Below, piece by piece: positions 3,289 to 47,822 of a stretch of 64,000 nucleotides of DNA. The notes beneath the pieces were generated by a model, which was not told where the DNA came from, made no database searches, and saw only the letters and a program-made list of their open reading frames with translations. Position numbers and translations under genes: made by a program. Source of the stretch: an uncultured Acidimicrobiia bacterium (lineage in GTDB: Bacteria > Actinomycetota > Acidimicrobiia > Spongiisociales > JAENVV01); contig CAVVWO010000005.1 in NCBI GenBank assembly GCA_963752075.1, positions 30,523 to 94,522 on the forward strand, in the 5' to 3' direction. Position 1 is the first letter of the stretch, and the number at the start of each line of letters is the position of its first letter.

Positions 3289-3340
3289 AGTCATCGGCGG
3301 CGGCACGGGCGTCGGAGCTCTCGTCCGGGCGGGCGGGTGG

Positions 3341-11967: not shown

Positions 11968-12046
11968 ATCCCGCGAACCCAGGGTTCCTGACCGCCATTG
12001 TGGCGGTCTAGAACCCAGGGTTCGCCATTGCGCCGCTTCAGACCGT

Positions 12047-16728: not shown

Positions 16729-17341
16729 ACTACGGTCCTATGCGTTCTTGGACAGCCTGCAACCGCAGTACGCAGCCTTCATCGGCACGACTGCGCCCGG
16801 GTTCTTGCCGTTGGCAGGCGAGGCGTCCCTGTTCGTGGAAATCTCGCCCGGGATCGAGATCAACCGCCTCACCGATGTGGCGCTCAAATCCAACAAGGTC
16901 AAACCAGGCATGCAGATCGTCGAGCGGTACTTCGGCCTCCTCGAGATCCACTCTCCGGAACAGGCCGAAACCCGGGGCGCCGGTGAGGCCATCCTCGAGG
17001 CGTGCGGGCTGACGGAGGTAGACCGGATCAAGCCGCGCATCCTCTCGAGTCAGATCGTTCGCCGTATCGATGACCATCAGGCGCAACTCATCAATCGCAT
17101 GCGCCATGGGCAGATGATCATTCCCGGTCAGACGCTGTACGTGATGGAATGCGAACCCGCCGCCTACGCGGCGTTGGCGACCAACGAGGCCGAGAAGGCC
17201 TCCAACATCAACGTGCTCGAGGTGCGGGCATTTGGCGCCATGGGGCGGCTCTATCTCGGTGGAGAGGAAGCGGACGTCGAGGTCGGGTGGCAGGCTGCGG
17301 TGGCGGCGTTGGAAGGTCTCGAAGGACGAGAAGCGAAGTAG
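16715..17341 (+). CDS. BMC-T shell protein, permuted tandem-domain type (CsoS1D/HO-T2/T3-like)
   Basis: 208 aa. [21 protein letters not shown]...[21 protein letters not shown] and [41 protein letters not shown] closely resemble the Haliangium double-stacking BMC-T proteins, from memory. Confidence 0.85.
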
Positions 17342-17379
17342 TCGAAAAGGTATCGAGAAGAAGAAACGAGGAGGAACAC

Positions 17380-17670
17380 ATGGCCGATGCTCTGGGAATG
17401 ATCGAGGCGCGCAGCTTCCCGGCGATGGTGGAAGCAGCCGACGCCATGGTGAAGGCTGCCAAAGTGGAGCTGGTCTCCTACGAGGAGACAGGCGGCGGGT
17501 ACGTGACCGCCATCATTCGAGGTGACGTTGCCGCGGTGAAAGCCGCCGTGGATGCCGGAGTGCGCGGCGCCGAACGGGTCGGTGAAGTCATTGCCACCCA
17601 CATCATCGCCCGCCCCCACGCCAACATCGACGCCATCCTGCCTCTGGGGCGCGCCGACGCGGCAGAGTAG
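17380..17670 (+). CDS. BMC-H hexameric shell protein (Pfam00936 type)
   Basis: ALGMIEARSFPAMVEAADAMVKAAKVELVSYEETGGGYVTAIIRGDVAAVKAAV. An RBS GAGGAGGA lies upstream. Confidence 0.92.
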   Translation: MADALGMIEARSFPAMVEAADAMVKAAKVELVSYEETGGGYVTAIIRGDVAAVKAAVDAGVRGAERVGEVIATHIIARPHANIDAILPLGRADAAE

Positions 17671-17685
17671 GAAAGGGAGTCCCGC

Positions 17686-17973
17686 ATGCTGCTCGGACGA
17701 GTCGCCGGCACGCTGGTGGCCAGCCGCAAGGAGTCGCGTCTCGACGGACTCAAATTCCTGGTGCTGGCCCAGCTGGATATCGACAACGCCGAGACCGGCT
17801 CGTACGTGGTGGCAGCAGACGCCGTCGGCGCCGGAGTCGGGGAGGTGGTCCTGTACGCCAGCGGAAGCTCAGCCCGGCAGACCGAGTACACCCACGAACG
17901 ACCCGTCGACGCAGTGGTCATGGCGATCGTCGATACCTGGGAAGTTGCCGGAGTGGATCGGTATAGCAAGTAG
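17686..17973 (+). CDS. BMC-P pentameric vertex protein (EutN/CcmL family), paralog 1
   Basis: [15 protein letters not shown]...LKFLVLAQL...[23 protein letters not shown]...[10 protein letters not shown]. Confidence 0.9.
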
Positions 17974-17976
17974 ACG

Positions 17977-19436
17977 ATGAGCGGCCTCAGCGAAGTTGAA
18001 ATCCAGGCAATCATCGACCGAGTCCAGCAACGACTCGGCGATGTTTCCTCGCGGTCTCGGCCGGCGGCATCTCTGGCTGCCCAGACAGAACTCGATGCGG
18101 CGGTGCAACTCGGCGACGGAATCTACCGCACCATCGATGAGGCGGTCGCGGCCGCCAAGCGAGCGCAGGCGCTGTACTCCGAGATGGGGCTGGGAGCTCG
18201 GTACGAGATCATCGACGCGGTGCGTCGAGCCATGCTCGAGCAGGCAGAACACCTGGCCATGCTCGCCCACACCGAGACGGGGCTTGGTCGCTACGAGGAC
18301 AAGGTCCGCAAGAACCGACTGGTGACCACCAAGGCCCCCGGTCCGGAGGACCTCGAGCCGCAGGCCGTGACCGGTGATGGCGGCATGGCCGTCATGGAGT
18401 GGGCGCCGGTCGGCCTCGTCGGGGCAATCACTCCTACCACGAACCCCACTTCCACCATCATCAACAACACGATCTCGATCGTGTCGGCAGGAAACGCAGT
18501 GGTGTTCAACGTCCATCCCGGGGCGAAGAACGTCTCGGCCGAGAACGTGCGCTTGCTCAATCGCGCCATCGTCGGCGCCGGCGGGCCGCCCGATCTCGTG
18601 ACGGCGATCCCCGCTCCGACCATCGACAGCGCCAAAGAACTCATGCAGCATCCCGACGTTCGGGTCTTGCTCGTGACGGGTGGTCCGGGAGTGGTGCGCG
18701 AAGCGCTCAAGACGGACAAACGGGCGGTTGCCGCGGGACCAGGCAACCCTCCTGCCGTCGTCGATGAGACAGCCGACATCGAGCGCGCCGCGCGCTGTAT
18801 CGTCGCCGGCGCTTCCTTCGACAACAACATCATCTGTACCGACGAGAAGCTGGCGATCGTCGTCGAGTCCGTCGCCGACCGCCTGGTCCGGGAAATGGCA
18901 AGGCCGGGGCCTACGTGTTGAAACAGCACGAGCTGCAGCGGCTCGAGCGAGTCATCTTTCGAGAGATGGGCCAGCCGAACAAGCCGGGCGTGATCAATCC
19001 GGCCTGGATCGGCAAGAACGCCTCGGTGATTCTCGCCCAGATCGGCGTACAGCTCGATGAGGATGTGCGACTGGTCGTCGCCGAGGTGCCGGTCGAGCAC
19101 AGCCTGGTTTGGACTGAGCAGATGATGCCGGTTTTCCCGGTGGTCCGCGTGCCGAACGTGGATGCCGGTATCGATTTGGCCGTGCGGGCCGAGCATGGTT
19201 TCCGTCACACGGCAGGTATCCATTCGACGAATGTGGAAACGATCACCCGAATGGCCCGTGCCATGAACTGTTCGATCTTCGTGGCGAATGCATCGTTTTT
19301 CGCCGGCCTGGGCGAAGGCGGCGAGGGTTACTCCTCCTTCTCGATCGCTTCACCCAGCGGGGATGGCTTGACCAGGCCCCGCACCTTCTCACGTCCCCGG
19401 CGGGTGACCGTCGTGGGGGCGCTCCGTATTGTCTGA
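17977..19436 (+). CDS. Acylating (CoA-dependent) aldehyde dehydrogenase, PduP/EutE type, with N-terminal extension (one apparent frameshift near 18900)
   Basis: ORF 17977..18921 joined to ORF 18915..19436. Motifs ITPTTNPTST, VVFNVHPGAK, GPGNPPAVVDETADI and NIICTDEK (catalytic Cys). The N-terminus is SEVEIQAIIDRVQQRL. Confidence 0.85.
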
Positions 19437-20043
19437 TGCGACGCACATGACCACGGAAAGCTCCTTGCGGCCCGCCATAGCCCTTCTCGAATTCGACTCG
19501 ATCGCGGCAGGAATAGAGGCAGGCGACGCCATGGTGAAGCGCTCGCCTCTCGATGTTCTCTTGGCCGGCACGGTGCAGCCGGGCAAATACCTCGTCCTTG
19601 TGGGAGGTCAGGTTGCCGATGTCGAGGAGGCCGTGGATGCCGGTCGCCAGGTGGCCGCGCAGCATCTCCTGGACGAGGTCTTCCTGGCCGATATCCACCC
19701 GCGAGTGGTCGAGGCTCTGGTCGGAACTCGGATGGAGGGATCCGGCGAGGCGCTCGGAATCATCGAAACCGCCACCGTGGCCGCAGTGATCGAGGCAGCC
19801 GATGCCGGGGTCAAAGGAGCGGTCGTGACCCTGCGAGAGATCCGGCTTGCCGATGGTCTTGGCGGCAAGGCCTATCTCTTGTTTGACGGGGAGGTCGGCG
19901 AGGTCGAAGCGTCGGTGGATCTCGGGACGGCTCGCATTCCCGGTCAGGTCCTGGGAAGCCGCGTGATCGCCCAACTGCATCCGGAGATGGACGAGAATCT
20001 GGCGGCCGACGGACGGTTCGCCCGCAGGATCAGGGGACGGTGA
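19429..20043 (+). CDS. BMC-T shell protein, tandem-domain single-layer type (PduT/HO-T1-like)
   Basis: Two BMC domains: AIALLEFDSIAAGIEAGDAMVKRSP and ALGIIETATVAAVIEAADAGVKGA. The start is TTG 19429 or ATG 19447. Confidence 0.85.
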   Translation: MSDATHMTTESSLRPAIALLEFDSIAAGIEAGDAMVKRSPLDVLLAGTVQPGKYLVLVGGQVADVEEAVDAGRQVAAQHLLDEVFLADIHPRVVEALVGTRMEGSGEALGIIETATVAAVIEAADAGVKGAVVTLREIRLADGLGGKAYLLFDGEVGEVEASVDLGTARIPGQVLGSRVIAQLHPEMDENLAADGRFARRIRGR

Positions 20044-20047
20044 CGGC

Positions 20048-20365
20048 GTGCACTTGGGGCGAGTGATCGGCACCGTCGTGGCAACGACCAGGACCCCGGA
20101 CCTCGACGGGGTCAAATTCCTGATTGTTCAGCCGCTCACCCGACAGCTCGAGCCGAGCGGCCGCCCGGTGGTGGCCGCCGACGGCGTTGCGATGGCCGGA
20201 CCCGAAGAGCTCGTTTACTTCGTCGGAAGTCGCGAGGCGGCTCAAGCGATGCCGGAGCCGTTCGTGCCGGTTGACCATGCCATCGTGGGCATCGTCGATG
20301 CCGTGGACCTGATCGAGGCGCCGGCCGGTCCCGCCAAGCGCCCAACGAGGAAGAAGAAGTCGTGA
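20048..20365 (+). CDS. BMC-P pentameric vertex protein, paralog 2
   Basis: MHLGRVIGTVVATTRTPDLDGVKFLIVQPL...VDHAIVGIVD, with a basic C-terminal tail. Confidence 0.88.
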   Translation: MHLGRVIGTVVATTRTPDLDGVKFLIVQPLTRQLEPSGRPVVAADGVAMAGPEELVYFVGSREAAQAMPEPFVPVDHAIVGIVDAVDLIEAPAGPAKRPTRKKKS

Positions 20366-20637
20366 AGGTGGCCCGCGTCTCGGGGACGGTGGTCTCGACC
20401 ATCTCGGCGCCGGTCTTCGGCGGCCGGCAACTTCTGCTGTGCGATTACGTGCACCCCGACGGCACCGCCACTGGCGACTACACCATTGCGGTCAACGTGG
20501 TGGGAGCGGGCGTCGGGGAGACCGTGCTGATCCTCGATGAGGGCACCGGCGCTCGTCAGATTCTCGGCGAGACGGTGGCTCCGGTGCGGGCTGTCGTGGT
20601 CGGGATCGTCGACGAACTCGAGATGAGCGGGACCTGA
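20362..20637 (+). CDS. BMC-P pentameric vertex protein, paralog 3
   Basis: MKVARVSGTVVSTI...LLLCDYVHPDG...AVNVVGAGVGETVLILDEGTGARQ...VRAVVVGIVDE. The GTG start overlaps the upstream stop. Confidence 0.88.
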   Translation: MKVARVSGTVVSTISAPVFGGRQLLLCDYVHPDGTATGDYTIAVNVVGAGVGETVLILDEGTGARQILGETVAPVRAVVVGIVDELEMSGT

Positions 20638-20657
20638 CCCCTTTCCATCGAGGGTGC
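20427..20657 (+). repeat. Left copy of a direct repeat (3' two-thirds of BMC-P paralog 3 plus 20 nt downstream)
   Basis: By hand alignment this matches 29325-29519. A 104-nt core (20528-20631 vs 29390-29493) is identical. The flanks carry a few substitutions, and the left copy has 36 nt that are missing from the right copy. Confidence 0.85.
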
Positions 20658-20668
20658 AACACCTTCGA
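20648..20668 (+). terminator. Possible stem-loop after the last shell gene (no T-tract)
   Basis: TCGAGGGTG-caa-CACCTTCGA, a 9-bp stem with one mismatch. The repeat boundary at 20657 falls inside it. Confidence 0.25.
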
Positions 20669-20873
20669 GGTTGGCAACGCCAACGACACTGGCCGGGTAT
20701 GCCGAAAACCGCTGTGGCAATGTAGGTAGGCGTTTTTGACGATCGCTGGACCAGCTAGCGGCGCGGTCGACCACCCACGGAATGCGGTCGCGAAAACTTC
20801 CACCCGCAGCCGAGTGGGTTTGGTGCTAGATCTTGGTCTTGGGGCGCAGGGGGCACCGGAACGAGGGGGAAGC

Positions 20874-23800
20874 ATGGCCGGCAGTGAGCGGACCGATTTC
20901 GCGGTAGCGGTGGACCTCGACCGATTCGCGGCGGGTTGGCGGCTCCTCCTCGGGCGACCCGATGTCATCGACCTCGGTGATTTGATTGGCCCCCGGCGCC
21001 GAGTGCCAGACATCGTCGTCGATGTGATGCGCTCCGAGGACCTGGCGGCCTTCACGGTGGAGGGATACGATCTCGAGCTGGTGGTCGGAGACGCACCGAT
21101 CCTGCGTCCCACGCCGGACAACGACGGGCTTCTGCTCGTCCGTTTCCCGTTCCAAAACCTCGCCGAGGACGCCATCTATGAGACTCCCGAGGGTGGTCGA
21201 CCGCCTCAGGTGCCGCACCCGGACGACCCGACGCTCCCGCCGATCGACGATCCGGATTTCGACCCTTCGGACGCCCGACCCGTGCCCCCGATCGATGCCC
21301 GGCCTGCCAAGAACAGCCGGCTCGTTTTTCGTGTTCCGCAAGGGGACGAGATCGAGTTCAGCACGCAGGGCATCCTCGATGCCATGGGTGACCTCGAGAT
21401 GGTGGTGCATTCGCTCGCCATGCCGCGCCCACCGGCCCTGCCCGGTCCGATCGAAGGTCCCATTTTCGAACTGCCGGGCGGCTTCACCGGGGTGCTGGCG
21501 ACCGATGGCCTGATCGTTCGTGCCGGCACCGAAGACATCGTCCGGGGAGAGGCGACCCCGGCCGAAGCGTTGAGCGCCCATGCACGCGACGCCCGCCGCG
21601 CTCGCGCCATCCTCTCGACACGGGCAGGCTTGGTGATCGGCGCCGACCTGAAAGTCGACGCATCCGACGTCCGATCCTTCACGATCGGCGGTGTAGAGGT
21701 GACGGTGCCTGGCTCGATGGTGGGAAGCGATCTGATCCTCCCTGATCTCGGCGTGAAAGTCCGGCCTCGGAAACGCCTGAGCAAGCCAGCCGCCCAACTC
21801 GAAACCGCCATCGAAGCCCCGTTCCGACTCATCATTTCGCCCAGCGACCAGGGCGGATGGGCGCATTCCAACCTCCCCGTCGCGGCCGGGGACGCTCCCC
21901 ACCGGGTGGAACTCTGGCACAGTCGGCTCGGAGTGCGGGTCGACTCCGGCGATGAGGTTGCTGTCGACGAACGTGCCAATCGACAGCGGATCGTGCGCGC
22001 CATATGGACCAGAGACCGGGAACGGTTCCCGGATTGGCAAGACCCGGCGAATCAGCCGGACCACGATCACGATCCCTTCAGAACCTCACTCGATGGCGCC
22101 GACCGTCACATGTTGGTGCGACAGACTGCTGAGACGTGGATTGGCGTCGGAAATCGCACGATCAGCCCGGTACCGGCCGATGCCACGGGCCTCTTTCTCT
22201 CCAGCCTCGGCGCCTGGGTCGACTTGCACGGAACGTGGACGACGGCGCCGTATTCGGAGGCAGGACTCGAATCGATCCTGCTGTGGGATCACGTGGCGCC
22301 GATGGGACGGGATCAGTTCGTTCGTGTCATGTACCCGGGGTATCTGTACCCGTTCGGCCACAAGGCAACGCTCGTCAAGGTGACCGAACGGAAGATGAAG
22401 GACGCCTCGCCATCGATCGCCAGTCTCTACCAACGAATGTTCATCGTGGTCGGTGAGGCCCTCAAGACCTTCTCGCAACGCGATCTCCCGTTTGATGAGG
22501 TGCGCCTTTCGCCCCTGGTCACCCCGACCATCGACGATCCTGGCACCGCCAACCTCAACAAATTCTTCTTCCCTTCTGTCGGCGGCATCGATTTCCCGTT
22601 CAATCTCCACACGGTCGACCGGGAAGGAACCCCCATCAGCCTCGTTGCCCCACTCATGTGGGTGGCCGAGTCTTTCGGAAGCAACGCGACCAACAGAACG
22701 GCAGTCGATTCCGCCTATGCGTCGAGTCCGAACAGCACCATCTCGGCCGGTGGTCAAAAGATCGCCTACGCGCCCGTCAAGAAGGGCGGCGACACCGTGT
22801 CCACGACCACGACGCTGAAGATGGCCGGAGCGGCATCGACGACGTCCGCCACTCCGAAGCTCGCCACGGCGAGCGTCGTCCTCCCGGCCGTCGAGCAGCT
22901 TTCGCCCGTTGGAGACGTGGTCATCCAATACGCCCAGACGTACCTCGGCAACGGTTTCGGCGGCACCGCCAACTCCGGAGACGTGTGGGCTGAACTCACC
23001 GGCGTCATCCCCAATCTCGCCTTTGGAGGCAACGGAGCGGGCAGCGACAAAGCGGGCGGGTTTCTTCAGCCCAACATGGCGATCAAAGGCTTGTCTCGCA
23101 TCAGCGGAACCGTCGGCGACGTGGCCGGCGCCGCCACCCAGACGTTTGATCCTGCCCAATTCCTGGCATCCGGCGTGGATCTCCCCAAGCTGTTCGGAGT
23201 GGTCGAGTTGCTCGACCTCATCGAGCTGGTCGTAGGCGATCTCGATCGAGCACCAAGCATCGTCTCCGAAGCCCTCGACCGAATCGAAGGCTTCGTTGCC
23301 GATCTGGAGCGAGCCAAGAAGATGGTGGAAGATGCCGTCGCCGAGGCCCAGAAGCTCGTCGACAGAGCCGCCAACAAAGCAGCCGAACTGCAGACCCAAG
23401 CCCAGCAGGCTCTCACCGCTGCGCAGAATCTCCAGGGGACCATCGAGGCGGCCGTCGACGACATCCTCGATCAGATCGCCGCTCTCCCCGGTGCCACCGA
23501 GGCCGCAGTGCAAGCCGCGCTTGCCAATCCTCTCCAGGCACTCAAGACCGCCACCACGGAGATGGAACAGGTCGCCCCACTGCTGCCGCCTCTCATCCGC
23601 CAGCAGCTGCTCAATCTGGCCAAGATCCTGCGGACCATCGCTGACGCCGTCGATATCGTCACGGACATCTATCGGTTCCTCAACGGGTTCGGGACCAGCG
23701 CAGTGATGGCTTCGTTCCGATTCGAGTGGAAGCCACCGATGAAGTCGTGGCCGAATGCCAACGATCCGATTCTGGCTCTCCAGGAAGACAGCTTGGTTTT

Positions 23801-24710
23801 GGCGGTCGAGGGCCGGGTGTCGGGCAAGGGCGAGATGGGGATCGAGGTGCTCGCCGAGCTGCGCGACTTCGTCCTTCACCTCCTACCGGCGGCTCCTCTG
23901 GTGCGGTTCAAGTTCGACCACCTCGCTTTCCGAGCCGGGTCGAGCGGCAAGCCAGAGGTCGATGTCGTCCTGCAAGACATCGAGTTCGTCGGGATTCTCT
24001 CGTTCATCGAGGTCCTCAAGGAGCTGATTCCGTTCGATGGCTTCTCCGACCCGCCGTTCCTCGAGATCGACGCCTCGGGTTTGACGGCCGGATTCACGCT
24101 CGACCTGCCCAACGTCGCCATCGGGGTGTTCAACCTCTCCAACATGTCGCTGGGCGCCGACATCCAGGTTCCCTTCCTGGGAAAGTCGGTCACCGTCGGA
24201 TTCAACTTCTGCACGCGCGAACGCCCGATGACACTCACCGTGATGGCCATCGGCGGCGGCGGCTGGTTCATGATCCGCCTGGCGCCCGACGGGCTCGACG
24301 TGCTGGAACTGGGTCTCGAGGCCGGCGCCGCTCTGGCCGTCGATTTCGGTGTGGCGTCCGGCTCCATCTCAGCCATGATCGGTATCTACATGCGGCTCGA
24401 GGGCGACACAGGCTCGTTGACCGGCTACTTCAGGTTGCGCGGCGAAGTCGATGTGCTTGGCTTGATCTCGGCTTCGATCGAGCTCTACCTCGAGCTCGTT
24501 TACGAGTTCGACAGCGGGAAGATGATCGGCTCCGCCCGATTGACGGTGAAGGTCGAGGTCTTGTTCTTCTCTGCCTCGGTCACCATCGAATGCGAACGGC
24601 GTTTCGCCGGCTCCAACGGCGATCCGAGCTTCCTCGACATCATGGGCCTGGAACCCGACGGTTCCTCGCCAGCCTGGTCGGAATACTGCCTCGCCTTCGC
24701 AGGAGCGTAG
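20874..24710 (+). CDS. Giant hypothetical protein 1 (1278 aa): Pro/Asp-rich N-terminal region, central coiled coil, Gly-rich hydrophobic beta-like C-terminus
   Basis: Uninterrupted ORF 20736..24710. ATG 20874 is preceded by GAGGGGGA. I saw no signal peptide and no named domain. Details are in the findings. Confidence 0.8.
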   Translation: MAGSERTDFAVAVDLDRFAAGWRLLLGRPDVIDLGDLIGPRRRVPDIVVDVMRSEDLAAFTVEGYDLELVVGDAPILRPTPDNDGLLLVRFPFQNLAEDAIYETPEGGRPPQVPHPDDPTLPPIDDPDFDPSDARPVPPIDARPAKNSRLVFRVPQGDEIEFSTQGILDAMGDLEMVVHSLAMPRPPALPGPIEGPIFELPGGFTGVLATDGLIVRAGTEDIVRGEATPAEALSAHARDARRARAILSTRAGLVIGADLKVDASDVRSFTIGGVEVTVPGSMVGSDLILPDLGVKVRPRKRLSKPAAQLETAIEAPFRLIISPSDQGGWAHSNLPVAAGDAPHRVELWHSRLGVRVDSGDEVAVDERANRQRIVRAIWTRDRERFPDWQDPANQPDHDHDPFRTSLDGADRHMLVRQTAETWIGVGNRTISPVPADATGLFLSSLGAWVDLHGTWTTAPYSEAGLESILLWDHVAPMGRDQFVRVMYPGYLYPFGHKATLVKVTERKMKDASPSIASLYQRMFIVVGEALKTFSQRDLPFDEVRLSPLVTPTIDDPGTANLNKFFFPSVGGIDFPFNLHTVDREGTPISLVAPLMWVAESFGSNATNRTAVDSAYASSPNSTISAGGQKIAYAPVKKGGDTVSTTTTLKMAGAASTTSATPKLATASVVLPAVEQLSPVGDVVIQYAQTYLGNGFGGTANSGDVWAELTGVIPNLAFGGNGAGSDKAGGFLQPNMAIKGLSRISGTVGDVAGAATQTFDPAQFLASGVDLPKLFGVVELLDLIELVVGDLDRAPSIVSEALDRIEGFVADLERAKKMVEDAVAEAQKLVDRAANKAAELQTQAQQALTAAQNLQGTIEAAVDDILDQIAALPGATEAAVQAALANPLQALKTATTEMEQVAPLLPPLIRQQLLNLAKILRTIADAVDIVTDIYRFLNGFGTSAVMASFRFEWKPPMKSWPNANDPILALQEDSLVLAVEGRVSGKGEMGIEVLAELRDFVLHLLPAAPLVRFKFDHLAFRAGSSGKPEVDVVLQDIEFVGILSFIEVLKELIPFDGFSDPPFLEIDASGLTAGFTLDLPNVAIGVFNLSNMSLGADIQVPFLGKSVTVGFNFCTRERPMTLTVMAIGGGGWFMIRLAPDGLDVLELGLEAGAALAVDFGVASGSISAMIGIYMRLEGDTGSLTGYFRLRGEVDVLGLISASIELYLELVYEFDSGKMIGSARLTVKVEVLFFSASVTIECERRFAGSNGDPSFLDIMGLEPDGSSPAWSEYCLAFAGA

Positions 24711-24714
24711 AACC

Positions 24715-27700
24715 ATGGTCACGGAACGATTCCAAGCGGTTGCTCTCCCCAAGACCCACGTCGAGGGGGCCCCCTTCCACGTCTCGGTGTTCGTCGGACC
24801 GGACCTGACTCCTGACGGCGCCGAGGGGGCACTCGACGATTTCAAACACTTTCCGCATTGGGCGGCCCTTCTCCGCGACGGCGGCGCCGACGTCGAACTG
24901 CGCGACCAGGACGGACCCATCGAGGTTGTCCCCCTTCTCGACCAGATTTCTACAAAGATCTGGGATGCGCTCTTCCCGCCCGACACGCCGGTTCGGGGCA
25001 AGGATGCGCCGGATTTCGCGAGTCGGCAATGGCGGACGTTCCGGGCCGCAGTTCCCCACGACGGCGCCAAGCTCATGCATGTCGTGGCGATGTTCGCCGA
25101 CCCCACCACGCCACCCGTGCCGAGCCGCCACCCCCTTGGCATTCTGCTCGGGCGGTTGAACGAGTTCCTTTCCGACAGAGACAACTTCCAGGGCAGGGAC
25201 TGGGATGAGTCGATCATCACCCGGGCGCTCGACCGAGCGGTCGGCGAAGGAGACCGGAAGCAGAGTCTCAGCCAGATCGAGAAGTCGATCGGGGCGCTCG
25301 ATCCTGTCTCACGGTTGACTCAGGAAATGCATCGGGCGCGACGCTTCTACGAGCGACCGGAGTCGGCTGCCGAGTACCGGGAACGTCCGATCGAGGGCTA
25401 TACCACTCCGCTTCCGCCTCGACCGGAGCCCGACTTCCACGAGCGTTGTGCGCTGGTTGCCGACAATCCGAGCCTCCAACGTCTGCTCGGCCTCGGTGGT
25501 GGACCTCAAGGTTGCCGAGCCGGGCCGGCTGGAGAAGAGCGACTGGATCTCGGCGCAGGATCATCCCGCAGGGAGATACGGCGGCCAGCCAGACCTCGAG
25601 AACCAGGGTGGCGGTCGCTGACGATGACCTCGTCACGGTGGCCGCTTCGAACGACTGGATCGAGGAGCGACTTCAGCTCGGCGACACCGATCGGTATGCG
25701 GTGCTGGATATGGACCCTGACGGGTCGGCCCTCAAGCTCGACCGGTTCTTGTGGTCGATGCCGCGTCTCCTCAAGGTGGAAGATGATGGCGGGCCGATCA
25801 ACGCCGCGCCGGCAGCCTTGCGGTCGATCGGTTTCACTATCGTCCGCCACCAAAAAGGGCTCGAAACCCAGAGTCGGATGTCCCGCCAGGTCAGCCTCTC
25901 CAACGCACCCGGTGCCCAGCCGCTTCTCAACACCGAGGACGTCACCCAGGGGCTCCGGGTCGACGTGTGGGATGACACGGCCAAAGCCTGGTACTCGCTG
26001 CATGCCCGCAGGATCGAGGCGGAGATCGTTGGCCACGGCGCCGTGGTCGAGGACGAGGCGGAAGAAGGCTTTGTCCAGGGCACCACCCTCACCGAAACGG
26101 TCGGCGTGGAAGACAGCCCCGTGCACGTTCACGAAGCGGTATTCGGCTGGCAGGGATGGAGTCTCAGCGCGACCCGACCCGGAAAGCGGGTCCGCCACGA
26201 GAACGGCGAAGAAATCGTCGAAGATCCCGATGTAGACCCCGACCCCATCACCCCGCTGGTGGTCGAGACGAGAGCCGAGCCCGGATCCCTTCCGCGATTG
26301 CGCTACGGCCGGTCCTACGCCTTCCGCGCCTGGGCCGTCGATCTGGCCGGAAACAGTCGCAGTCGCGACCTCGGGTCGCCGCCTCCTCCTCCACTCGCAG
26401 CGGTCAACGCCTTGACGTCTGCGATGGGCGCCGGCGGGGAGGTTCCGAACAGCGCCGCTCATCTGCTGCCGATCCTTCGGGCCGACACTGCTGCGGTGCT
26501 GATGCGAGACCGCCTCCAACCGGTCGAGCCGGCCACGCCGACGGTACCGATCGGATTCAAGATCGTCGACCAGCCTGATATCGACGATGCAATCGTGCGC
26601 CGCATTCGTGCTCGCCGGCCCGAAGCGGCACGCCCGAGATCTGGTGAGGCAAGTGGGTTCTCCACCCGGAGAGCCTCGGTGGTGGGAGCCTCGTTCGCCG
26701 ACGTGGCCCTCGATCAGACACAGCCCTTCATGGTGGACACCGGGGTCGTCGATCCTGAGGTGCTCGCCCACGCGTTGCCGCTGCCATCGGATATCGAAAC
26801 GATCCCGAACTATCTCAACACCGTCACGGCGCTCCGCCCCTTCCTCCGGTGGGATCCCGTTCAGCCGCCCACGGTCGTGGCGCGTCATGCGTATTCCGAG
26901 GGTGAGTCGCTTCTCCGGCTGGTGGTGCGCTCGGGTGTCACACAGGACCTCGACACTCTGGAGCTGACAGTGACCCGTCCGGACGTGTACGGACCTGCGA
27001 ACGGATACCGCGGAACCAGCGAACGTCACGTGGCGCCTCCCAAGACGAGCCAGACGGAGGCCGAAACACATGGAGCCTTCGATGCGGCCATCGGGTCCAC
27101 CAACCCGGCCGACCATGCGTTGCTCCTGGGTTCGGCGATCCGCGAGAAGGGGACCTGGTTTGACACCGAGGTCATCCGCCTCGACGACCCGACCACTGCC
27201 GATCCGCAGGCGGGGATCGCCCTCGCCAACGATCCCGATGTTCCGCCTTCGACCATGAAGGCACTCCCTCTGCCTCAGGGCGAGATGCCCGCCACCGGCC
27301 AGTACATCGTCCACGACACCGACGAGCCAGTGTGTTGCCCTATCTGCCCGATGTGGTGCGCGCGTGGCATCTCGTTGGTGTTCCAGGAGGCGGGTCAGGA
27401 CCGCCAGATCATCTTCCCGTTCGGCACGGAAGGCTTCACCGCTCGGTATCGGGGGACGTGGCCAGCGCGCGAACCCTTCCGTCTCGTTCTCGGCGACAGC
27501 AGTGAGGTTCGTGGTCGGACTGTCGGGACGCACCCTCGAGATCGGTCTCCCGCCCGGGCGACGTACAGCGTTTCCGGCTCGCCTCGTCGCTGGATCCGGA
27601 GGACCTCGAACTGTTCGGACTCTGGCGGATCTTGCCGCCGATCCTGCGGGACAATCCCGACATCATCGAAGCGGCCGCCGACGGATGGCTGTGGGCGTTC

Positions 27701-29267
27701 ACGCCCTTCGACCAGGTCACGTTGGTGCATGCAGTGCCCCGTCCTCTCGAAGCGCCTCGCCCGACCATCCTGCGCGCCCTGCGCCTCGAGGAGGGCGCCA
27801 CGGACGCTTTCCTCGCCGGCGCCGTCGACATCCACGGGCCGAGCACCGATTCGCTGACGGCCGAAGTGTCGTGGGTCGACCAGGTCGACGATCTGAGTCT
27901 GCCCGCCCCCGAGGAGCGGGCCGAGACCGGCGTCGCTTTCACCACGCAGGTCCGGACTGAGGAGGATCTGGCGGTATTGGGTGGCGGACCGGAGGACGTT
28001 CGCCTGGTGGTGCCCGGATTTGGGCCGGTCTGGGTCCACAGCGCGTTGCACAAACTCAACGACACCCGCCACCGCAACATCACCTATCGGTTCCGAGCCG
28101 CCACCCGCTTCCGCGAATACTTCGACCCAGCCGCCTTGGCTCCCAGCGGCGACACCACCGCCGACGGGGTGGCGGACGACGGGCAGAGCGTGCTTGGTCC
28201 GGCAACGGTCTTGTCCGTGCCCGAGCTCGGCCAAGCCGGCCGCTCCGGTGGTTCATTCGGTGATCCCCCTGTTCCGATGGGACGCCGGAACCGAACCGGA
28301 GCAGCCGATGGCGACCCGCCGCCGGCGGCGGGCCGGTGTGCGGATCTATCTGGAGCGACCATGGTTTTCGTCGGGCGAGAACGAGCTGCTCGGGGTATTG
28401 GTCGCTCGTCGCGGCGACGATTCCAACGTGGACGGGCTGGTGAGTCAATGGGGTGCGGATCCGATTTGGGTCGCCGACCAGGTCGATCGTCGAGCCATGT
28501 TCCTCGAGTTCGACGATCTGATGCGGCTCTCCGGTCTCGACGACCGTCCAGGCGACGCCATGCCGGTGGTTCCACCCGCCGAGCACCCGTTGGCCACCGA
28601 GCCGGGATCGCCGGTGGTCGGTGTGCTCGGATACCGCCCACAGTTCAATGTCGAGCGGGGCCTCTGGTATGTCGACGTGGCCCTCGATCCGACCACCAAG
28701 TTCTGGCCGTTCGTCAGGTTGGCGGTGGCGAGGTACCAACCGGAGAGCATTGCTGGATGCCATCTCTCCAAACCGGTCCGGTGCGACTTCGTGCAGCTCA
28801 CCCCAGAACGAACCACGAGCGTCAGCCGCACCGACGTCCGGCACGTCCGGGTGGTGGTGAGCGGTCCGGTTGGCGTGCGCGACGGTCTCGAGTCAGACGC
28901 CGGCGTGTTTCCTGGACCGCTGCAGCTTCCGGCCGCCGTGGCAGCGAACCGGACCGTGATAGCCCGCCTCCAGCGACGGGACCCGCAGATTCCGACCGAC
29001 CTTGGTTGGGCGACGGTCGATACGGTCGAGCTCGACGTCCGCGGTTTGGCAGGCAGCGTCTTTTCGCCTGCATGGGTCGGTTCCCTCGCCTCGCCGGTCA
29101 ACATCCCGCTCCGTCGTCCGGGCGGGGGGAGTACCTGGCGGGTCGTCGTCGAAGAGTGGGAGCGACTCGAGGGCGACCCGGCCACCCTCGGCGCCACGAC
29201 TGGCCGCCGACCGCCGCCACCGGTCTGGGAACAACGCCTCATCTACGCAGACGAGGTTGCCCTCTGA
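24715..29267 (+). CDS. Giant hypothetical protein 2 (about 1517 aa), read through five apparent +1 frame changes
   Basis: ATG lies 4 nt after the stop of giant 1. The segments are 24715-25497, a short piece VVDLKVAEPGRLEKSDWISAQ, 25560-27505 (ORF 25446..27857), a short piece VVGLSGRTLEIGLPPG, 27556-28220 (ORF 27632..) and 28220-29267 (ORF 27981..29267). Plausible protein sequence continues across every junction. Confidence 0.7.
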
Positions 29268-29274
29268 CGTCCCG

Positions 29275-29499
29275 ATGTTCCGACGATCCGGAAATGCCGG
29301 CCAACATCCGTCCGCCACGGGACCGCAACTTCTGCTGTGCGGCTACGTGCACCCCGACGGCACCGCCTCGGGCGACGGGGAGACCGTGTTGATCCTCGAT
29401 GAGGGCACCGGCGCTCGTCAGATTCTCGGCGAGACGGTGGCTCCGGTGCGGGCTGTCGTGGTCGGGATCGTCGACGAACTCGAGATGAGCGGGGCCTGA
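29275..29499 (+). pseudogene. Truncated BMC-P remnant (copy of the paralog 3 C-terminus with a 12-codon in-frame deletion)
   Basis: Translation ...QLLLCGYVHPDGTASGD-GETVLILDEGTGARQILGETVAPVRAVVVGIVDELEMSGA, compared with paralog 3 QLLLCDYVHPDGTATGDYTIAVNVVGAGVGETVL... It lacks the conserved N-terminal strand and the VGAGVGE segment. Confidence 0.75.
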
Positions 29500-29519
29500 T
29501 CCCTTTCCATCGAGGGTGC
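29325..29519 (+). repeat. Right copy of the BMC-P-derived direct repeat
   Basis: See 20427-20657. Similarity ends at ...cgagggtgc on both sides. Confidence 0.85.
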
Positions 29520-29695
29520 TTGGAGACGCAGGGCTTGGTCGAAGCTGGAGAAAAGGGCCGGGGCCTTGCCCATCATCGTTGGATTCGGTTTGTGGCGGGG
29601 CTAGGGTCGACGTCGTTCGTCTGACCCTCCACGACTGGCATGCCGATCCATCGCACTCCGTACTGTCCAGCGCAACTGAGAGACCCTGCGGGCTC

Positions 29696-31198
29696 GTGAG
29701 AAGCTTCATTCCGTCCCTTTCGAGTCTCTCGCGCTACGCTGCCGCCCTCGTCGGATTAGCTGCGCCCACCCTCTTTTTTTGGGGCACCTATCGAAGCTCG
29801 GCGGCGTGGTTTCCGGTTCCGCCGATTCCCTGGTCCCACTTGATGGCCTCACTCGTCCTTGCGGTGATCGCCGATCTCGTCATAGCTTTCGTCCTGGTAC
29901 GGCTCGGTAGCTCGCTTTCCGACGCTGTCGTCGCAGCGGTTATCCCCGTCTGGTTTTTGTTCTTCTACTCGCGGACGTTGATAGGACTGTCCATCGTTAC
30001 GTTCGAGGTTGTCTCGCTCCGTTGGCTGAGATTCCTGTTCTGGCTACTCCTCCTTGGTCTCGTGGCGCTTGTTTCGAAGGCTGTGCAGCGCGGGAACGGA
30101 CCGGTTATCGCGGCAGCCGTCGCCGTGTTCGGGGTTGCTTCCATCGCCCAACATGCTCATGCACTGATTGCTCCGCCGTCGGTGCAGCCCGCCCCGGCGT
30201 CCTTCACGATCACCGAGGAGAAGAATGTGTGGGTCCTCGTCTTCGACGAACTGGCGTCACCGTTGTTCCTAGGGCGGTACGCGACCGATCCGCCCCAGAT
30301 CGTCAAGATGCTCGAGAACCAGGGATTCGAAGTTCCTCTGGCGCCAGTGAGTCCGTACAGCCAGACCTACCCTGCCCTCACCTCGATCTTCACCTTGGAC
30401 CCGGTGCGACCGGGTATCTATGGAGAGGATGACTGGGCGGCCAGATCAGCGGTCTTCGGCGGTGACCATCCGCTCGCCCGCTCCTATGTCGACGAAGGGA
30501 GGCCGGTGGTTCTCGTGGAGGCTCCAATTTCGCCGGGATATTGCAGCGACATCGTCACTGACTGCCACCCTGCCCTGCTGGACGATTTCGACAGGTTCTT
30601 GATCGCAAATACGGCCCTCTTCGAGCTGCCCGGTTCGTGGAGGAGCTGGGCCGAACAGGGGCTCGCCCAGATGGATCGACTCGATGAGGTCGCACAGGAA
30701 GGAGGAACGGGTCGGTTGATCCTGGCGCATGTCATGCTCGCCCACGGGCCCTACCTTCTCGATTCCGCCTGCAACACCTCTCTTCCCTCTGTGTACTCCT
30801 CGGAGAAGTACATGGATCAGGTCGGGTGTCTGGGCTCGAGGCTGTCGAAGCTCGTCTCGGTGATTCCACCCGACGATGTGGTGTTGATCCTCAGTGATCA
30901 TGGGATCACCCGCGCCGAGCCATATCCGATGGATACGCCCGAGGCTCGGGAGGAGCGTCTGGTGTCGTTTGTCGCCCTGAGAGGGTGTCAACCATCCGAC
31001 GAGTATCTCGACTCCAACGTCAACGCCTACCGGGCACTGGTCAATTGCGTTACGACGGCATCGCTGGAGCCTGTCGTGGTGCCCCCAACCCTCACCTGCT
31101 ACCTGGGGAAAGACACCATCGAACTTGTCGAGATTCCGAAGGGTGTTCCTACAGACCCGGTTGAATGCCGGGAGGGTTCACGGAATGTGGGTTCATGA
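29696..31198 (+). CDS. Membrane protein with C-terminal sulfatase/alkaline-phosphatase-superfamily-like domain
   Basis: ORF 29516..31198. It has about 5 N-terminal TM helices, then VWVLVFDELASP, LILAHVMLAHGPYLLD and VLILSDHGI, motifs typical of LTA-synthase or phosphoethanolamine-transferase-like enzymes. The start is uncertain (GTG 29696). Confidence 0.6.
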   Translation: MRSFIPSLSSLSRYAAALVGLAAPTLFFWGTYRSSAAWFPVPPIPWSHLMASLVLAVIADLVIAFVLVRLGSSLSDAVVAAVIPVWFLFFYSRTLIGLSIVTFEVVSLRWLRFLFWLLLLGLVALVSKAVQRGNGPVIAAAVAVFGVASIAQHAHALIAPPSVQPAPASFTITEEKNVWVLVFDELASPLFLGRYATDPPQIVKMLENQGFEVPLAPVSPYSQTYPALTSIFTLDPVRPGIYGEDDWAARSAVFGGDHPLARSYVDEGRPVVLVEAPISPGYCSDIVTDCHPALLDDFDRFLIANTALFELPGSWRSWAEQGLAQMDRLDEVAQEGGTGRLILAHVMLAHGPYLLDSACNTSLPSVYSSEKYMDQVGCLGSRLSKLVSVIPPDDVVLILSDHGITRAEPYPMDTPEAREERLVSFVALRGCQPSDEYLDSNVNAYRALVNCVTTASLEPVVVPPTLTCYLGKDTIELVEIPKGVPTDPVECREGSRNVGS

Positions 31199-31258
31199 CC
31201 ATGGACAGCGGTCAAGGTTGGCGGTAAGCTGAGAGCCACCAGCAAACAGGGGTTCCCA

Positions 31259-31420
31259 ATGCGGTTGTTCTCATACATCGATCCTGCGGCCGGGGGTCTT
31301 CTGATTCAGGTTCTTCTCGGCGGAACAGCCGGAGTCCTGGCGCTGTTTCGCGGCAAGATTCGCCGCCTCTTCAAGAGCGGTAGCGAAGCGACCGTCCTTC
31401 CCGCCGACCGCGAGTCGTAG
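31259..31420 (+). CDS. Small (53 aa) hydrophobic protein
   Basis: Hand-found ORF below the track cutoff: MRLFSYIDPAAGGLLIQVLLGGTAGVLALFRGKIRRLFKSGSEATVLPADRES. It has one TM helix followed by a basic tail. Confidence 0.4.
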   Translation: MRLFSYIDPAAGGLLIQVLLGGTAGVLALFRGKIRRLFKSGSEATVLPADRES

Positions 31421-31449
31421 CGACCAAACACGGCTCTCGAATCAGGGTC

Positions 31450-32703
31450 TCAACGAAGAGGCATCTCTTCGACCTCGGTGGCTTCCGGCATGGATTCGGC
31501 GTGATGACGCTCGAACCAGTCGGCGTAGCGTCTTGAGAGCGGCACTGCGGTCAGGCCGTGGAGGAAGACACTGGCGAGGACCGTCCAGATCACCACGAGA
31601 AGAAGGTCGTCGCCCATCGGTAGTTCTGCTTCTTCCAGGATGAAGAGCCCGAAGAGGATCGAAGCCAAGCCGCGTGGCCCGAACCACGCCACGAAGGCGA
31701 CCGTCTGGAACCTCAGTCCGGCGCCGATCATGCTCAGCGCCACTGGTGCCATCCGGACGAAGGTGAGGCTGAGGAGAGCGTAGAGGCCGATCCTCCATGT
31801 CAATTGGTCGAGCGCCGGGCCCGCCATGGCGGCTCCGAAGAACAAGAAGGTCAGCAACGAGAGGAGCTGCCCTTGGTCTTCGGCGAAGTCGTGGACGGTC
31901 GGGCACTGATCCCGGGCTGCCTCACCGAAAGCCAAGCCAGCCACGAAGGCGGCCACAAAACCGTTGCCGCCCGCCGCTTCTGCCCCGGCGAACGCCGCCA
32001 CCCCAACCGCCAAGGCTGACAATTGGCGGAAGGCCCCGTCCATCCAGTTGCGGGCAGAGAACCATTCGATGAGTTTCCCGCCTCCATAGCCAACGATGAC
32101 GGCGATCAGGACGCCGAATCCGATTTGGCGAACGGTGAACCGAGCCCAGAAGGAGGGTGTCTCCAGGTCGACTCCGGTCGCGGCAAGCGCCAGGAACAGG
32201 GTGATGACGGGGAGCATGATGCCGTCGTTCAAGCCGCTTTCGACGTTGAGTGCCTGGCGGACGCGAACCGGAACCCGCCGGTTGGAGACCACTGCTTGCC
32301 CGAGCGCTGCGTCGGTAGGAGAGAGAATGGCGGCGACCAGCGCCGCTTCCCAGATTCCAAACCCCGGCAGAATCGCCAAGGCCGCCGCAGCTCCGCTGAT
32401 CACCGTGAGTGGCAATCCGAGCCCCAGCAATCGTGCCGGGAGGTCTATCTGGCGCCGCAGTCGGCTCAAGTCGATTCGGATCGCATCGGTGAACAGCAGC
32501 AAGACCAGCGTCGCCTCGGCCAGGACGCGAACGGCTCCGTCGTCCATGCCCAGATCCAGGATATCCAGGCCAGGTGGCCCGAGGATGATTCCGGCCGTCA
32601 CGAACACCATTGGCCCGGTGACGGGCGTGGTCTCCAGTCGGCGCGAGACGAGCGCATATGCGATGACGAACACGGCGAGGATGGCCAGTCCGGCTATCTC
32701 CAT
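31450..32703 (-). CDS. Na+/H+ (cation:proton) antiporter, CPA1 family
   Basis: MEIAGLAILAVFVIAYALVSRRL, ILSPTDAALG, ESGLNDGIMLP and a polytopic profile. ATG at the complement of 32701-32703. Confidence 0.85.
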   Translation of the reverse strand: MEIAGLAILAVFVIAYALVSRRLETTPVTGPMVFVTAGIILGPPGLDILDLGMDDGAVRVLAEATLVLLLFTDAIRIDLSRLRRQIDLPARLLGLGLPLTVISGAAAALAILPGFGIWEAALVAAILSPTDAALGQAVVSNRRVPVRVRQALNVESGLNDGIMLPVITLFLALAATGVDLETPSFWARFTVRQIGFGVLIAVIVGYGGGKLIEWFSARNWMDGAFRQLSALAVGVAAFAGAEAAGGNGFVAAFVAGLAFGEAARDQCPTVHDFAEDQGQLLSLLTFLFFGAAMAGPALDQLTWRIGLYALLSLTFVRMAPVALSMIGAGLRFQTVAFVAWFGPRGLASILFGLFILEEAELPMGDDLLLVVIWTVLASVFLHGLTAVPLSRRYADWFERHHAESMPEATEVEEMPLR

Positions 32704-32828
32704 GGGCCGTGAGCCCGAGCAGAACCAAGAGTTCCGGCGCGAAAATCGGGGAGAGAGACAGGAGCGAGCACTGGCCGTGAGGCTACCCGCCGGGTGAACT
32801 CCGAGGCTGCTCACAAGAGTTTCTGGTA

Positions 32829-32854
32829 ACCTGCCTAACGCTTGTTAGGTGGGT
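32829..32854. promoter_or_regulatory. Imperfect 26-bp palindrome, candidate TetR operator
   Basis: ACCTGCCTAAC-gctt-GTTAGGTGGGT, with a perfect CCTAAC/GTTAGG core. It lies between the divergent antiporter and TetR genes. Confidence 0.45.
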
Positions 32855-32857
32855 TCC

Positions 32858-33464
32858 ATGGTCACAACGCAAACCGATGGTCGGCAGCGCCTGCTCGAAG
32901 TGGGCGCCGATCTCTTCCATGACCGTGGCTACACCGAGACCACCCTTCGAGACATCGCTCAACAGGCAGGGATGAAGGCCGGTTCGATCTACTACCACTT
33001 CGCGTCCAAGGACCATTTGCTGACCGAGGTACTACGCATCGGCATGGCAGCCATCACCGATGCCTTCCTAGCCGCTGCCGATGCTCGGACGTCGGACGCT
33101 GCCGACGCGCTTGCGGGCGGCGATCTCAGCCCACATGGAGGCGCTCTTTCGGCATGGACCGTTCACGACTGCTCATGTCAGCGTCCTGGGGCGCGCTCCC
33201 AAAGCAGTCCGCGACCAGATCGTTCCCCTTCGCGACGCCTACGAGTCACTCTGGACCCAACTTCTCTCAGAGCTCCGAGACGAGGGCGCTCTTCGTCCCT
33301 CGCTCGACGTTCGTTTCGTTCGCCTCAACTTGCTGGGCGCCATGAACAGCTCGTTGGAGTGGTTCGACCCGGCAGGGGAGCAGCCCCTCGAGATGCTGAT
33401 CGATCACCTGGTCGATCAGTTCTGGGCAGGACTCGCCAAATCAGACCTCACACAGGAGAATTGA
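32858..33464 (+). CDS. TetR-family transcriptional regulator (apparent frameshift near 33110)
   Basis: HTH RLLEVGADLFHDRGYTETTLRDIAQQAGMKAGSIYYHFASKDHLL. The C-terminal domain is in ORF 33081..33464. Confidence 0.8.
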
Positions 33465-33468
33465 CCCG

Positions 33469-37092: not shown

Positions 37093-37221
37093 GAGGCTCC
37101 TCCGTGGTGGGTGCTCAGCTCAGCGTACCGACCAGGACCGGCTCGCGCCCGCTCGACGCCGCTGCGGCTCGGGTGTCCGAGGAGGACGCTAGCCTTCCGC
37201 CGTTCCCAACCAGGAGTCCCC

Positions 37222-47258: not shown

Positions 47259-47822
<564 letters not shown>

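Follow-up and report, generated by a model that had tools for sequence, protein, structure and literature searches.

A truncated copy of a microcompartment shell gene beside an ancient giant-gene pair: a probable rearrangement scar in an uncultured Acidimicrobiia genome

Introduction

Integrase islands insert into a gene at its 3' end, with tRNA genes as the classical targets, restore that gene, and leave attL and attR repeats at their borders. Partial gene duplicates also remain at the borders of illegitimate recombination, homology-facilitated illegitimate recombination and end-joining. Merodiploid formation in pneumococcal transformation is the subject of PMC3784515. The sugar-phosphate utilisation (SPU) type of microcompartment (BMC) locus was defined by Sutter et al. 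(2021; PMC8217296), with a BMC-P triplet as the norm.

We analyzed a 64,000-nt stretch of DNA (here, the window) from an uncultured Acidimicrobiia bacterium (contig CAVVWO010000005.1), in which an SPU-type operon is followed by two giant genes and then by a truncated copy of the last shell gene, BMC-P3 (Table 1). As in the loci of Sutter et al. (2021; PMC8217296), RpiB (PF02502), the DeoC aldolase (PF01791), AldDH and the shell genes, including BMC-H, BMC-T and the three BMC-P genes, are present in conserved order. The locus differs from those loci in the giant pair, which is appended after P3 in this lineage alone, and in the additional P3 fragment, which is found in this genome alone.

The arrangement recalls an attL/attR island: there is an intact gene on one side and its 3' fragment on the other, in direct orientation, and the repeat ends soon after the gene. 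However, an integrase is lacking, and the repeat, at 200-236 nt, has a diverged 5' part where att sites would have a short exact core. The genes it encloses are ancient and common to the sister clade, and the pair occurs elsewhere without such repeats. The likeness to the border duplicates of illegitimate recombination lies in a truncated, direct-orientation copy of a resident gene, abrupt homology limits, the lack of a dedicated recombinase, nearby microhomologies (TGCCGG in the related genome L166, GGCG(A/T)C at the gap within the fragment), and foreign low-GC DNA beside the fragment. The difference is that the DNA between the repeats is here the old resident and not the incoming piece, and that we infer the donor haplotype and the joining event.

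Table 1. Positions of the features discussed, numbered from the first letter of the window
Feature	Position	Strand	Basis
SPU-type BMC operon: RpiB, DeoC aldolase, BMC (208 aa), BMC-H, BMC-P1, AldDH, BMC-T, BMC-P2, BMC-P3	15284..20637	+	Pfam
BMC-P3, intact 91-aa EutN/CcmL pentamer gene, last of the operon	20362..20637	+	PF03319 positions 1-83/83, E = 1.4e-21
Left repeat copy: from P3 codon 21 through the stop codon and 20 nt beyond	20422..20657	+	Repeat search, alignment
Short hairpin at repeat end, 9-bp stem, CAA loop	20648..20668	+	Folding
Giant gene 1, 1278 aa, intact, conserved hypothetical	20874..24710	+	380 homologs, none with a Pfam domain
Giant gene 2, collinear with intact 1509-1524-aa orthologs	24715..29267	+	tblastn with L001 and L003 orthologs
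Spacer downstream of giant gene 2	29268..29319	+	29276-29301 common to L166, local alignment p ~0.008
Right repeat copy: 5'-truncated P3 fragment with 36-nt internal gap	29320..29519	+	Repeat search, alignment, Pfam
mem560, membrane protein ORF, likely start 29843 (451-aa version called in L084)	29516..31198	+	2 database homologs
orf53, small hydrophobic protein	31259..31420	+	Called gene in L084
Na+/H+ exchanger gene	31450..32814	-	L004 synteny resumes here; L166 synteny at 32433

The direct repeat

The gene order from DeoC to P3 is the same in the related loci that span it (~80, from a genome-contig scan), and P3 shares 92% amino acid identity with its counterpart in the related genome L004. 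The AldDH gene can be read only after one frame correction near 18899. Exact-protein look-ups of BMC-P3 and of the remnant ORF found no record.

Alignment establishes 20422-20657 and 29320-29519 as direct copies, with nine substitutions over 200 aligned nt and one 36-nt in-frame gap. The repeat is far beyond chance (a 51-nt piece of its core occurs exactly twice in the window, with 0 occurrences expected). An earlier, sequence-only reading of this DNA had drawn the copies at 20427-20657 and 29325-29519; these are real, and the 5' limit lies 5 nt further out. A repeat search of the window returns two segments (D5, 20422-20478 vs 29320-29376, 57 nt, 89%; D1, 20507-20657 vs 29369-29519, 151 nt, 97%), and the change of offset from 8898 to 8862 between them places the 36-nt gap in the right copy, where, as that reading had it, 12 codons (YTIAVNVVGAGV) are missing. 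Microhomologies, GGCGAC and GGCGTC, flank the gap.

Homology sets in abruptly at 20422/29320 and ends at 20657/29519, which bears out the earlier placement of the end 20 nt beyond the stop codon; no residual homology was found downstream of both copies. The left end point does fall inside a stem-loop, in which 20648-20656 pairs with 20660-20668. This hairpin looks like a reduced form of the large one that follows P3 in L166 (-43.1 kcal/mol, z = -6.3), both arms of which can be aligned. A weaker similarity that had been suspected 5' of the right copy dissolved on scoring, given that its score equals the mean of random window segments (0.62 of the null reaches it).

The substitutions (left-copy coordinates 20424, 20426, 20444, 20445, 20506, 20513, 20527, 20632 and 20638) give a divergence of 4.5% overall (9/200), 9/96 (~9%) outside the core and 0% within the 104-nt core. 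The new alignment confirms this core, which is the longest identical run between the copies, with P ~0.011 if substitutions were placed uniformly. Chance, a crossover region or a conversion tract could each account for the run. The clustering nonetheless suggests that gene conversion operates, or has operated, on the copies, so that molecular dating of the repeat is weakened.

The source of the right copy is clear from its translation, which matches P3 at 54 of 56 residues (P1, 21/48; P2, 15/47). Both copies have a C-terminus of the window type, DELEMSG(T/A), where L166 and L004 have DEVTT(T/P). With these two genomes as outgroups, the changes derived in the left copy are synonymous (GAC>GAT, ACG>ACT), and those derived in the right copy are R>P, D>G, T>S and one synonymous change. 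We regard the right copy as a pseudogene fragment because its changes are mostly non-synonymous (R>P, D>G, T>S, T>A). With 20 N-terminal codons absent and 12 core codons deleted, the copy lacks part of the EutN fold, and Pfam EutN matches only at profile positions 45-83 (E = 8.6e-6) rather than over the full-length pentamer domain (1-83). These sequence comparisons show that the right copy derives from P3 and is unconstrained.

The giant gene pair

The pair is widespread in Acidimicrobiia and Actinomycetota, and it is without a family or fold assignment. Searches of both proteins against Pfam, NCBIfam, PADLOC and PDB sequences returned only coiled-coil noise, and Foldseek matches of the two models had TM values of <=0.32, or <=0.27 where the target was the PDB. 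Giant protein 1 is modeled as a coiled coil and helical bundle that gives way to an all-beta C-terminal region with long strands (pLDDT 67.8, weak fold matches). For giant protein 2, the C-terminal 349 aa give a confident tandem beta-sandwich model (pLDDT 90.4). In this assembly giant gene 2 needs three frame changes (~25482-25560, 27554-27572 and 28218-28222). We considered pseudogenisation and dropped it, because dN/dS is low in each of the four pieces (0.05-0.115), many single-base indels separate this assembly from that of L166, and ORFs with partial domains occur elsewhere in the window; assembly errors or very recent lesions are the more likely cause.

The proposal that the giant genes form a discrete two-gene unit fared well. 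They are adjacent (~1250 aa and ~1510 aa) in L001, L002 and L003, in three unrelated, non-BMC neighbourhoods. No bracketing direct repeats were found there (both flanks in L001 and L003; the left side only in L002, where the contig ends inside giant gene 2).

At the site considered here, giant-gene material follows P3 in only one of 160 related SPU-type BMC loci, L004, and also in the separately fetched L166. The three genomes form the tree (window,(L166,L004)), and in each of them the pair lies downstream of P3, intact in L166 and reduced in L004 to deletion remnants (six small fragments). Against L166, dS is 0.50-0.60 (~0.55) and dN/dS is 0.05-0.12 (0.080 for giant gene 1), from which it follows that the pair is old, vertically inherited and selected at this site. 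These comparisons show the pair to be ancestral to the window and the L166/L004 clade and under purifying selection. There is no sign that the pair was replaced horizontally between lineages, as its dS overlaps the lower end of the range for the flanking genes (0.53-1.5). A metagenome scan for closer relatives gave 76% amino acid identity at best.

At the age of the pair, a neutral fragment would be expected to differ by at least 30%. Divergence of the repeat is <=5%, which makes it ~4-10x younger than the pair, unless gene conversion kept the copies similar; with a neutral right copy, the age of the repeat would come to roughly 0.1-0.25 of that of the split.

In L166 the full pair is followed by 34 nt of downstream spacer in common with the window, and a P3 fragment is missing. 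This genome lacks 29302-32432 and is joined at a TGCCGG microhomology; L004 lacks 28182-31449. These are independent deletions across the critical interval; as neither genome offers a clean empty site, they do not prove that the ancestor lacked the right copy. L166 was set aside as an empty site because its own deletion covers the interval, and for the mem560 segment L004 was rejected as a clean empty site because its spacer match is not significant (p = 0.25).

The right flank

The right copy adjoins mem560 and orf53, which are a near-orphan module specific to the window. Neither gene was present in L166, L004 or the other 160 related BMC loci fetched. An orf53 homolog also follows the mem560 homolog in L085 (tblastn 66% identity, 1680-1820), which makes this a two-gene module, and mem560 has a pN/pS of 0.33 vs L085. 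From the end of the right copy GC drops by ~6 points, to 0.60-0.61 in mem560 vs 0.66-0.69 in giant gene 2.

Origin of the repeat

The reading that we prefer, with a probability of about 0.58, is that the window lineage's own P3 was partly duplicated, by illegitimate recombination and long after the pair had settled, and that the right copy is the young, non-functional result and not the scar of the pair's integration. The repeat would then be an ordinary rearrangement scar. For the exact mechanism we infer recombination, illegitimate or homology-facilitated, or else an old scar that underwent gene conversion. The duplicated piece would run from P3 codon 21 to just beyond the stop, ending inside the terminator-like hairpin of the operon, and would form the left edge of a lineage-specific mem560 + orf53 segment in the interval from giant gene 2 to the Na/H exchanger gene. 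In the most economical version, a piece of a conspecific haplotype in which P3 was followed directly by mem560 (no such haplotype was observed) would have been joined into the spacer after giant gene 2, either through end-joining or through homology-facilitated illegitimate recombination with its anchor on the exchanger side. It would be equivalent for the pair to have recombined into such a P3-mem560 haplotype, where the illegitimate end would fall in P3 codon 21. The fragment would later have lost 36 nt by slippage between GGCGAC and GGCGTC, and the identical 104-nt core could have been left by a short gene-conversion tract or by the crossover itself.

The sequence-only reading had favored a scar of the pair's original integration at the P3 3' end (Campbell-type or site-specific), which requires conversion from the left copy to have kept the similarity. 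We consider this doubtful. The geometry of the repeat fits, the pair is discrete in unrelated contexts and lineage-specific at this locus, and substitution clustering around the core (P ~0.011) is what a conversion tract would leave. The deletions over the right-end site in L166 and L004 also allow for an ancestral right copy, and the 13 nt beyond the repeat at the right copy resemble the apex of the L166 hairpin (9/13 in fixed register), which would be expected of a right copy that retains old sequence from downstream of P3, although this resemblance is not significant in free local alignment. However, the pair is old at this same site in L166 and L004, whereas the repeat is young and L166 lacks the right copy. 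A useless 200-nt fragment would have had to last for ~dS 0.3-0.45 per lineage in fast-deleting genomes (in L004 most of the pair has disappeared since the 5-10% split that separates it from L166), and even the non-core flanks are just 9% diverged. The idea therefore survives only if gene conversion long kept a useless fragment similar, and it leaves unexplained why an orphan mem560 module sits exactly at the fragment's outer edge.

Searches for a mobile element point the same way. No recombinase or transposase was found in the ORFs tested from 1 to 56 kb, and the giant genes have no Pfam, NCBIfam or PADLOC recombinase match; the earlier observation that the bracket holds no recombinase is correct and extends to these ORFs. 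The predicted empty site, with P3 followed directly by the sequence from 29520 onward, was not found in relatives, in that L166 and L004 carry giant genes there. An integrase-type element with att repeats is thus short of a recombinase gene, an empty site in relatives and flanking repeats at other sites (three other cassette sites lack them; L002, left side only). The repeat is also unlike a transposon target-site duplication, being 200-236 nt long and 95.5% identical, and there are no terminal inverted repeats around it among the inverted-repeat pairs of the window, and no transposase. That a recombinase-less two-gene cassette entered by Campbell-type recombination at the P3 3' end, its att-like repeat kept by gene conversion, is a version that we hold to be unlikely.

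We also weighed an assembly chimera, in which two coexisting strains (one with P3 followed by the giant genes, the other with a P3 variant followed by mem560) were falsely joined at 29302-29320 in the long-read metagenome assembly, so that no genome would hold both copies. The many single-base frame problems would suit noisy or low-coverage long reads. Independent support for the junction 29319|29320 was sought and none was found, so that it rests on one assembly with scattered frame errors. Logan contig L084 (ERR12040029), whose start lies 30 nt into the identical core, at the point where a branch is expected in a k=31 graph, shows only that the core has two continuations in its sample. Set against this, chance would have to place the false join 35-52 nt past the stop of giant gene 2, with no shared sequence, where assemblers do not join, and the P3 of the second strain would bear a 12-codon core deletion and three radical replacements. 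We judge a chimera improbable. The simpler suspicion that the right copy is an assembly duplicate was rejected, because the copy carries its own variants and is reproduced by an independent short-read contig: L084 matches 29464-32265 at 99.86%, with the bases specific to the right copy.

A fourth BMC-P paralog that decayed after the pair had been inserted between two paralogs, as had also been suggested, is rejected as very improbable: an ATG at 29275 does open a 74-codon frame through the fragment, but the triplet is the norm (PMC8217296), the fragment is 96% identical to P3 where true BMC-P paralogs are only 28-42% identical to one another, similarity in the 5' part is at chance level, and, among 131 related SPU loci in which 500 nt or more of downstream sequence is available, none has BMC-P-like sequence after P3.

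Implications

For annotation, 29320-29519 should be labeled a BMC-P3 pseudogene fragment, neither a fourth shell gene nor an att site, and the giant genes should not be treated as a recent island. With a 200-bp direct repeat around the 8.7-kb pair, RecA-type excision is now possible, and a crossover in the core would leave P3 intact. The repeat thus offers a simple route to precise loss of a strongly conserved pair with the shell gene kept. Should the repeat be the scar of the pair's integration after all, clean excision would make the pair a mobile unit tied specifically to the microcompartment operon. The sister genomes show how fast such a pair can be lost once dispensable (the six small fragments of L004), and for functional work the giant pair is a better target than the repeat.

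A partial copy of BMC-P3 lies beyond the giant genes

The window (64% GC) holds an operon that fits the SPU (sugar-phosphate-utilisation) type as defined by Sutter et al. (2021; PMC8217296), their "BMC-P triplet" included, and two giant genes follow it. The sequence-only reading held that this giant pair is bracketed by a direct repeat of a BMC-P 3' end, and that observation is right.

Features of the window around the repeat (window positions)
Feature	Position	Product	Content or placement
SPU microcompartment operon	15284-20637		RpiB, DeoC, BMC, BMC-H, BMC-P1, AldDH, BMC-T, BMC-P2, BMC-P3
Left copy	20422-20657		3' part of BMC-P3 plus 20 nt
Giant gene 1	20874-24710	1278 aa	next after the operon
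Giant gene 2	24715-29267		next after giant gene 1
Downstream of giant gene 2			in order: 52-nt spacer, right copy, mem560, orf53, convergent Na/H exchanger gene
Right copy	29320-29519
mem560 + orf53	29516-31420		near-orphan two-gene module

A repeat search of the window returned two direct-repeat pairs, one of 151 nt at 97% identity (20507-20657 / 29369-29519) and one of 57 nt at 89% (20422-20478 / 29320-29376), with offsets 36 nt apart. Both MAFFT and a separate gapped alignment give 9 substitutions in 200 aligned nt and an identical run of 104 nt; the right copy lacks 36 nt in a single in-frame gap, flanked by GGCGAC and GGCGTC (slippage-type microhomology). A 51-nt core piece is present at exactly two places in the 64-kb window (0 expected). 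Self-comparison of the window set the limits of the copies: homology begins abruptly at 20422/29320 and stops 20 nt past the stop codon in both, the latter as had been proposed. No residual homology was found beyond this shared end point, and the weaker similarity said to continue 5' of the right copy is no better than that of random window segments.

Judged by residue matches (54/56 to P3, 21/48 to P1 and 15/47 to P2), the right copy is derived from P3; the true paralogs share only 28-42% identity with one another. Its Pfam match is limited to EutN profile positions 45-83, and its derived changes, polarised with the P3 of two close relatives of the window (L166 and L004), are mostly nonsynonymous (R>P, D>G, T>S), whereas those of the left copy are synonymous; the right copy is therefore an unconstrained fragment. 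The two copies have in common a window-specific P3 C-terminus, unlike the one in L166 and L004.

The giant pair is old at this site

L166 and L004 form a sister pair (90-95% nucleotide identity), with the window as outgroup. L166, located via a 93%-identical giant gene 2 fragment, matches window 19895-29263 collinearly at 85.5%, through P2, P3 and both giant genes. L004 (~81% nucleotide identity to the window, with synteny on both sides) retains after P3 six short pieces of the two giant genes, all collinear, with 0-3-nt overlaps at the joins and ~1 kb of unrelated DNA among them (11004-12037, with a 288-codon open frame); the exchanger gene comes next. These remnants occupy L004 10262-12468, and the loss was rapid, falling since the 5-10% split from L166. 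Because all three loci carry pair material after P3 and the window is the outgroup, the pair was already there in their common ancestor. Comparison of the window with L166 gives dS 0.50-0.60 and dN/dS 0.05-0.115 for giant gene 1 and for each of the four frame segments of giant gene 2 (flanking genes, dS 0.53-1.5); the pair is therefore old at the site, vertically inherited and functional.

The pair also occurs in unrelated, non-BMC neighborhoods on three other contigs (L001-L003), with no bracketing repeats (L002 ends inside gene 2, where the open reading frame reaches the contig end; it is intact in L001, at 1524 aa, and in L003, at 1509 aa). Thus, the proposed "discrete cassette" stands as a conserved two-gene unit, but the repeat is not part of it.

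Several hundred homologs of giant gene 1 were found, mostly in Acidimicrobiia and Actinomycetota metagenomes, every one unannotated. Searches of the giant proteins against Pfam, NCBIfam, PADLOC and PDB sequences gave nothing except coiled-coil noise. AlphaFold models the last 469 aa of giant protein 1 (pLDDT 67.8) as a helical bundle leading into a beta meander of long strands, for which the only fold matches, resembling porins or lipid-transfer proteins, are weak (TM ≤0.27). For giant protein 2, the C-terminal 349 aa give a confident model of tandem beta-sandwiches (pLDDT 90.4), with no convincing structural neighbor. Upstream of giant gene 1, window 20757-20873 and L166 839-955 are highly conserved (CGCGGTCGACCACCCACG...GGGGGCACCGGAAC.AGGGGGAAGCATGG) and the adjoining intergenic DNA is not alignable; this stretch is a candidate promoter or leader of the pair.

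Origin of the repeat

The explanation that fits the repeat best is a young duplicate of part of P3, which would belong to a later rearrangement, specific to this lineage, in which the mem560 module took part. A neutral fragment dating from the arrival of the pair should by now be about 30% or more diverged from P3, whereas divergence between the copies is 4.5% as a whole (9% outside the core, 0% within it). If there was no gene conversion, the duplicate is, on these figures, about 4-10 times younger than the split. An old integration scar that gene conversion has kept similar to P3 would account for the same low divergence, and we consider it unlikely.

An assembly chimera is very improbable. 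The repeat is not an assembly duplicate, because the right copy carries variants of its own and a second, independent assembly reproduces the right junction; for junction 29319|29320, the support is this one assembly. The other proposal of the sequence-only reading, a decayed fourth BMC-P paralog, is rejected, because BMC-P-like sequence follows P3 in 0 of the 131 loci that extend 500 nt or more past it. These come from P3 scans in which 160 loci were compared (80 from genomes and 80 from metagenomes); the order DeoC ... P2-P3 is kept in the genome-scan loci that span the operon, and giant-gene material was found in L004 only. In several distant SPU loci (L021, L035, L065, L077), an acyl-CoA dehydrogenase-like gene lies directly 3' of P3; in the window, an ACAD gene is at 33469-34620, past the giant pair.

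The module implicated in the proposed young duplication comprises mem560, a membrane protein ORF of 560 aa (or 451 aa) with several predicted N-terminal membrane segments and a soluble C-terminal part, and orf53 (53 codons). Where the right copy ends, GC drops from 0.66-0.69 to 0.60-0.61. Only two database relatives of mem560 were found, a 100%-identical protein on a Logan short-read contig (L084, ERR12040029) and a 63%-identical protein on L085, which also has an orf53 homolog downstream, hence a two-gene module. For mem560, nothing matched in Pfam (E up to 0.01) or in NCBIfam and PADLOC (E up to 0.1); its pN/pS of 0.33 indicates a real gene.

The module was not found in L166, L004 or any other BMC locus compared. 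Its ancestral absence from the interval is likely, short of proof because L166 and L004 have independent deletions across it. In L166, a 34-nt spacer after the pair, homologous to window 29276-29301 (p ~0.008), precedes a jump to window 32433, with TGCCGG microhomology.

A strong hairpin follows P3 in L166 (735-810; -43.1 kcal/mol, z = -6.3), probably the SPU operon terminator. After the left copy, the window has a short hairpin (20648-20668, 9-bp stem) that keeps both arms (TCGAGGGTG / CACCTTCGA) and lacks the apical part; the right copy keeps the 5' arm, and the next 13 nt match the L166 apex at 9/13 positions, a likeness that is not significant in free alignment and only suggestive. The shared end of similarity may thus stem from loss of the apex of the left hairpin and not mark where the duplicated segment really ends.

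Frame breaks

As assembled, three frame changes are needed in giant gene 2 and one in AldDH. Giant gene 2 has five uncompensated single-base insertions relative to L166 (25491, 25555, 27515, 27552, 28223), which divide it into its four frame segments. Across the pair, the window and L166 differ by 17 small indels, of which fifteen are 1 nt long and two are 2 nt long; several must be L166 lesions, because the window's giant gene 1 is unbroken there. With purifying selection this strong, long-read errors or very recent lesions are the simplest account of the frame breaks. AldDH is split into two frames at 18890-18915 by a 1-nt deletion beside a short G/C run (ATGG-CAAGG vs. ATGGGGAAGG; reference L004 and another retrieved locus, L005); this is an assembly error, or else the signature enzyme is truly inactivated. 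Relative to L004, an in-frame stop divides a 652-aa ORF (35335-37119, minus strand), and the frame changes near 33105-33148 in a TetR-family gene (32849-33493, plus strand). Partial Pfam domains in ORFs at 1718-4147 and 46860-49219 (ECH 161-205 / 251, adh_short 132-200 / 236, abhydrolase 3-103 / 245, FMO from 120 / 532) suggest further frame breaks across the window.
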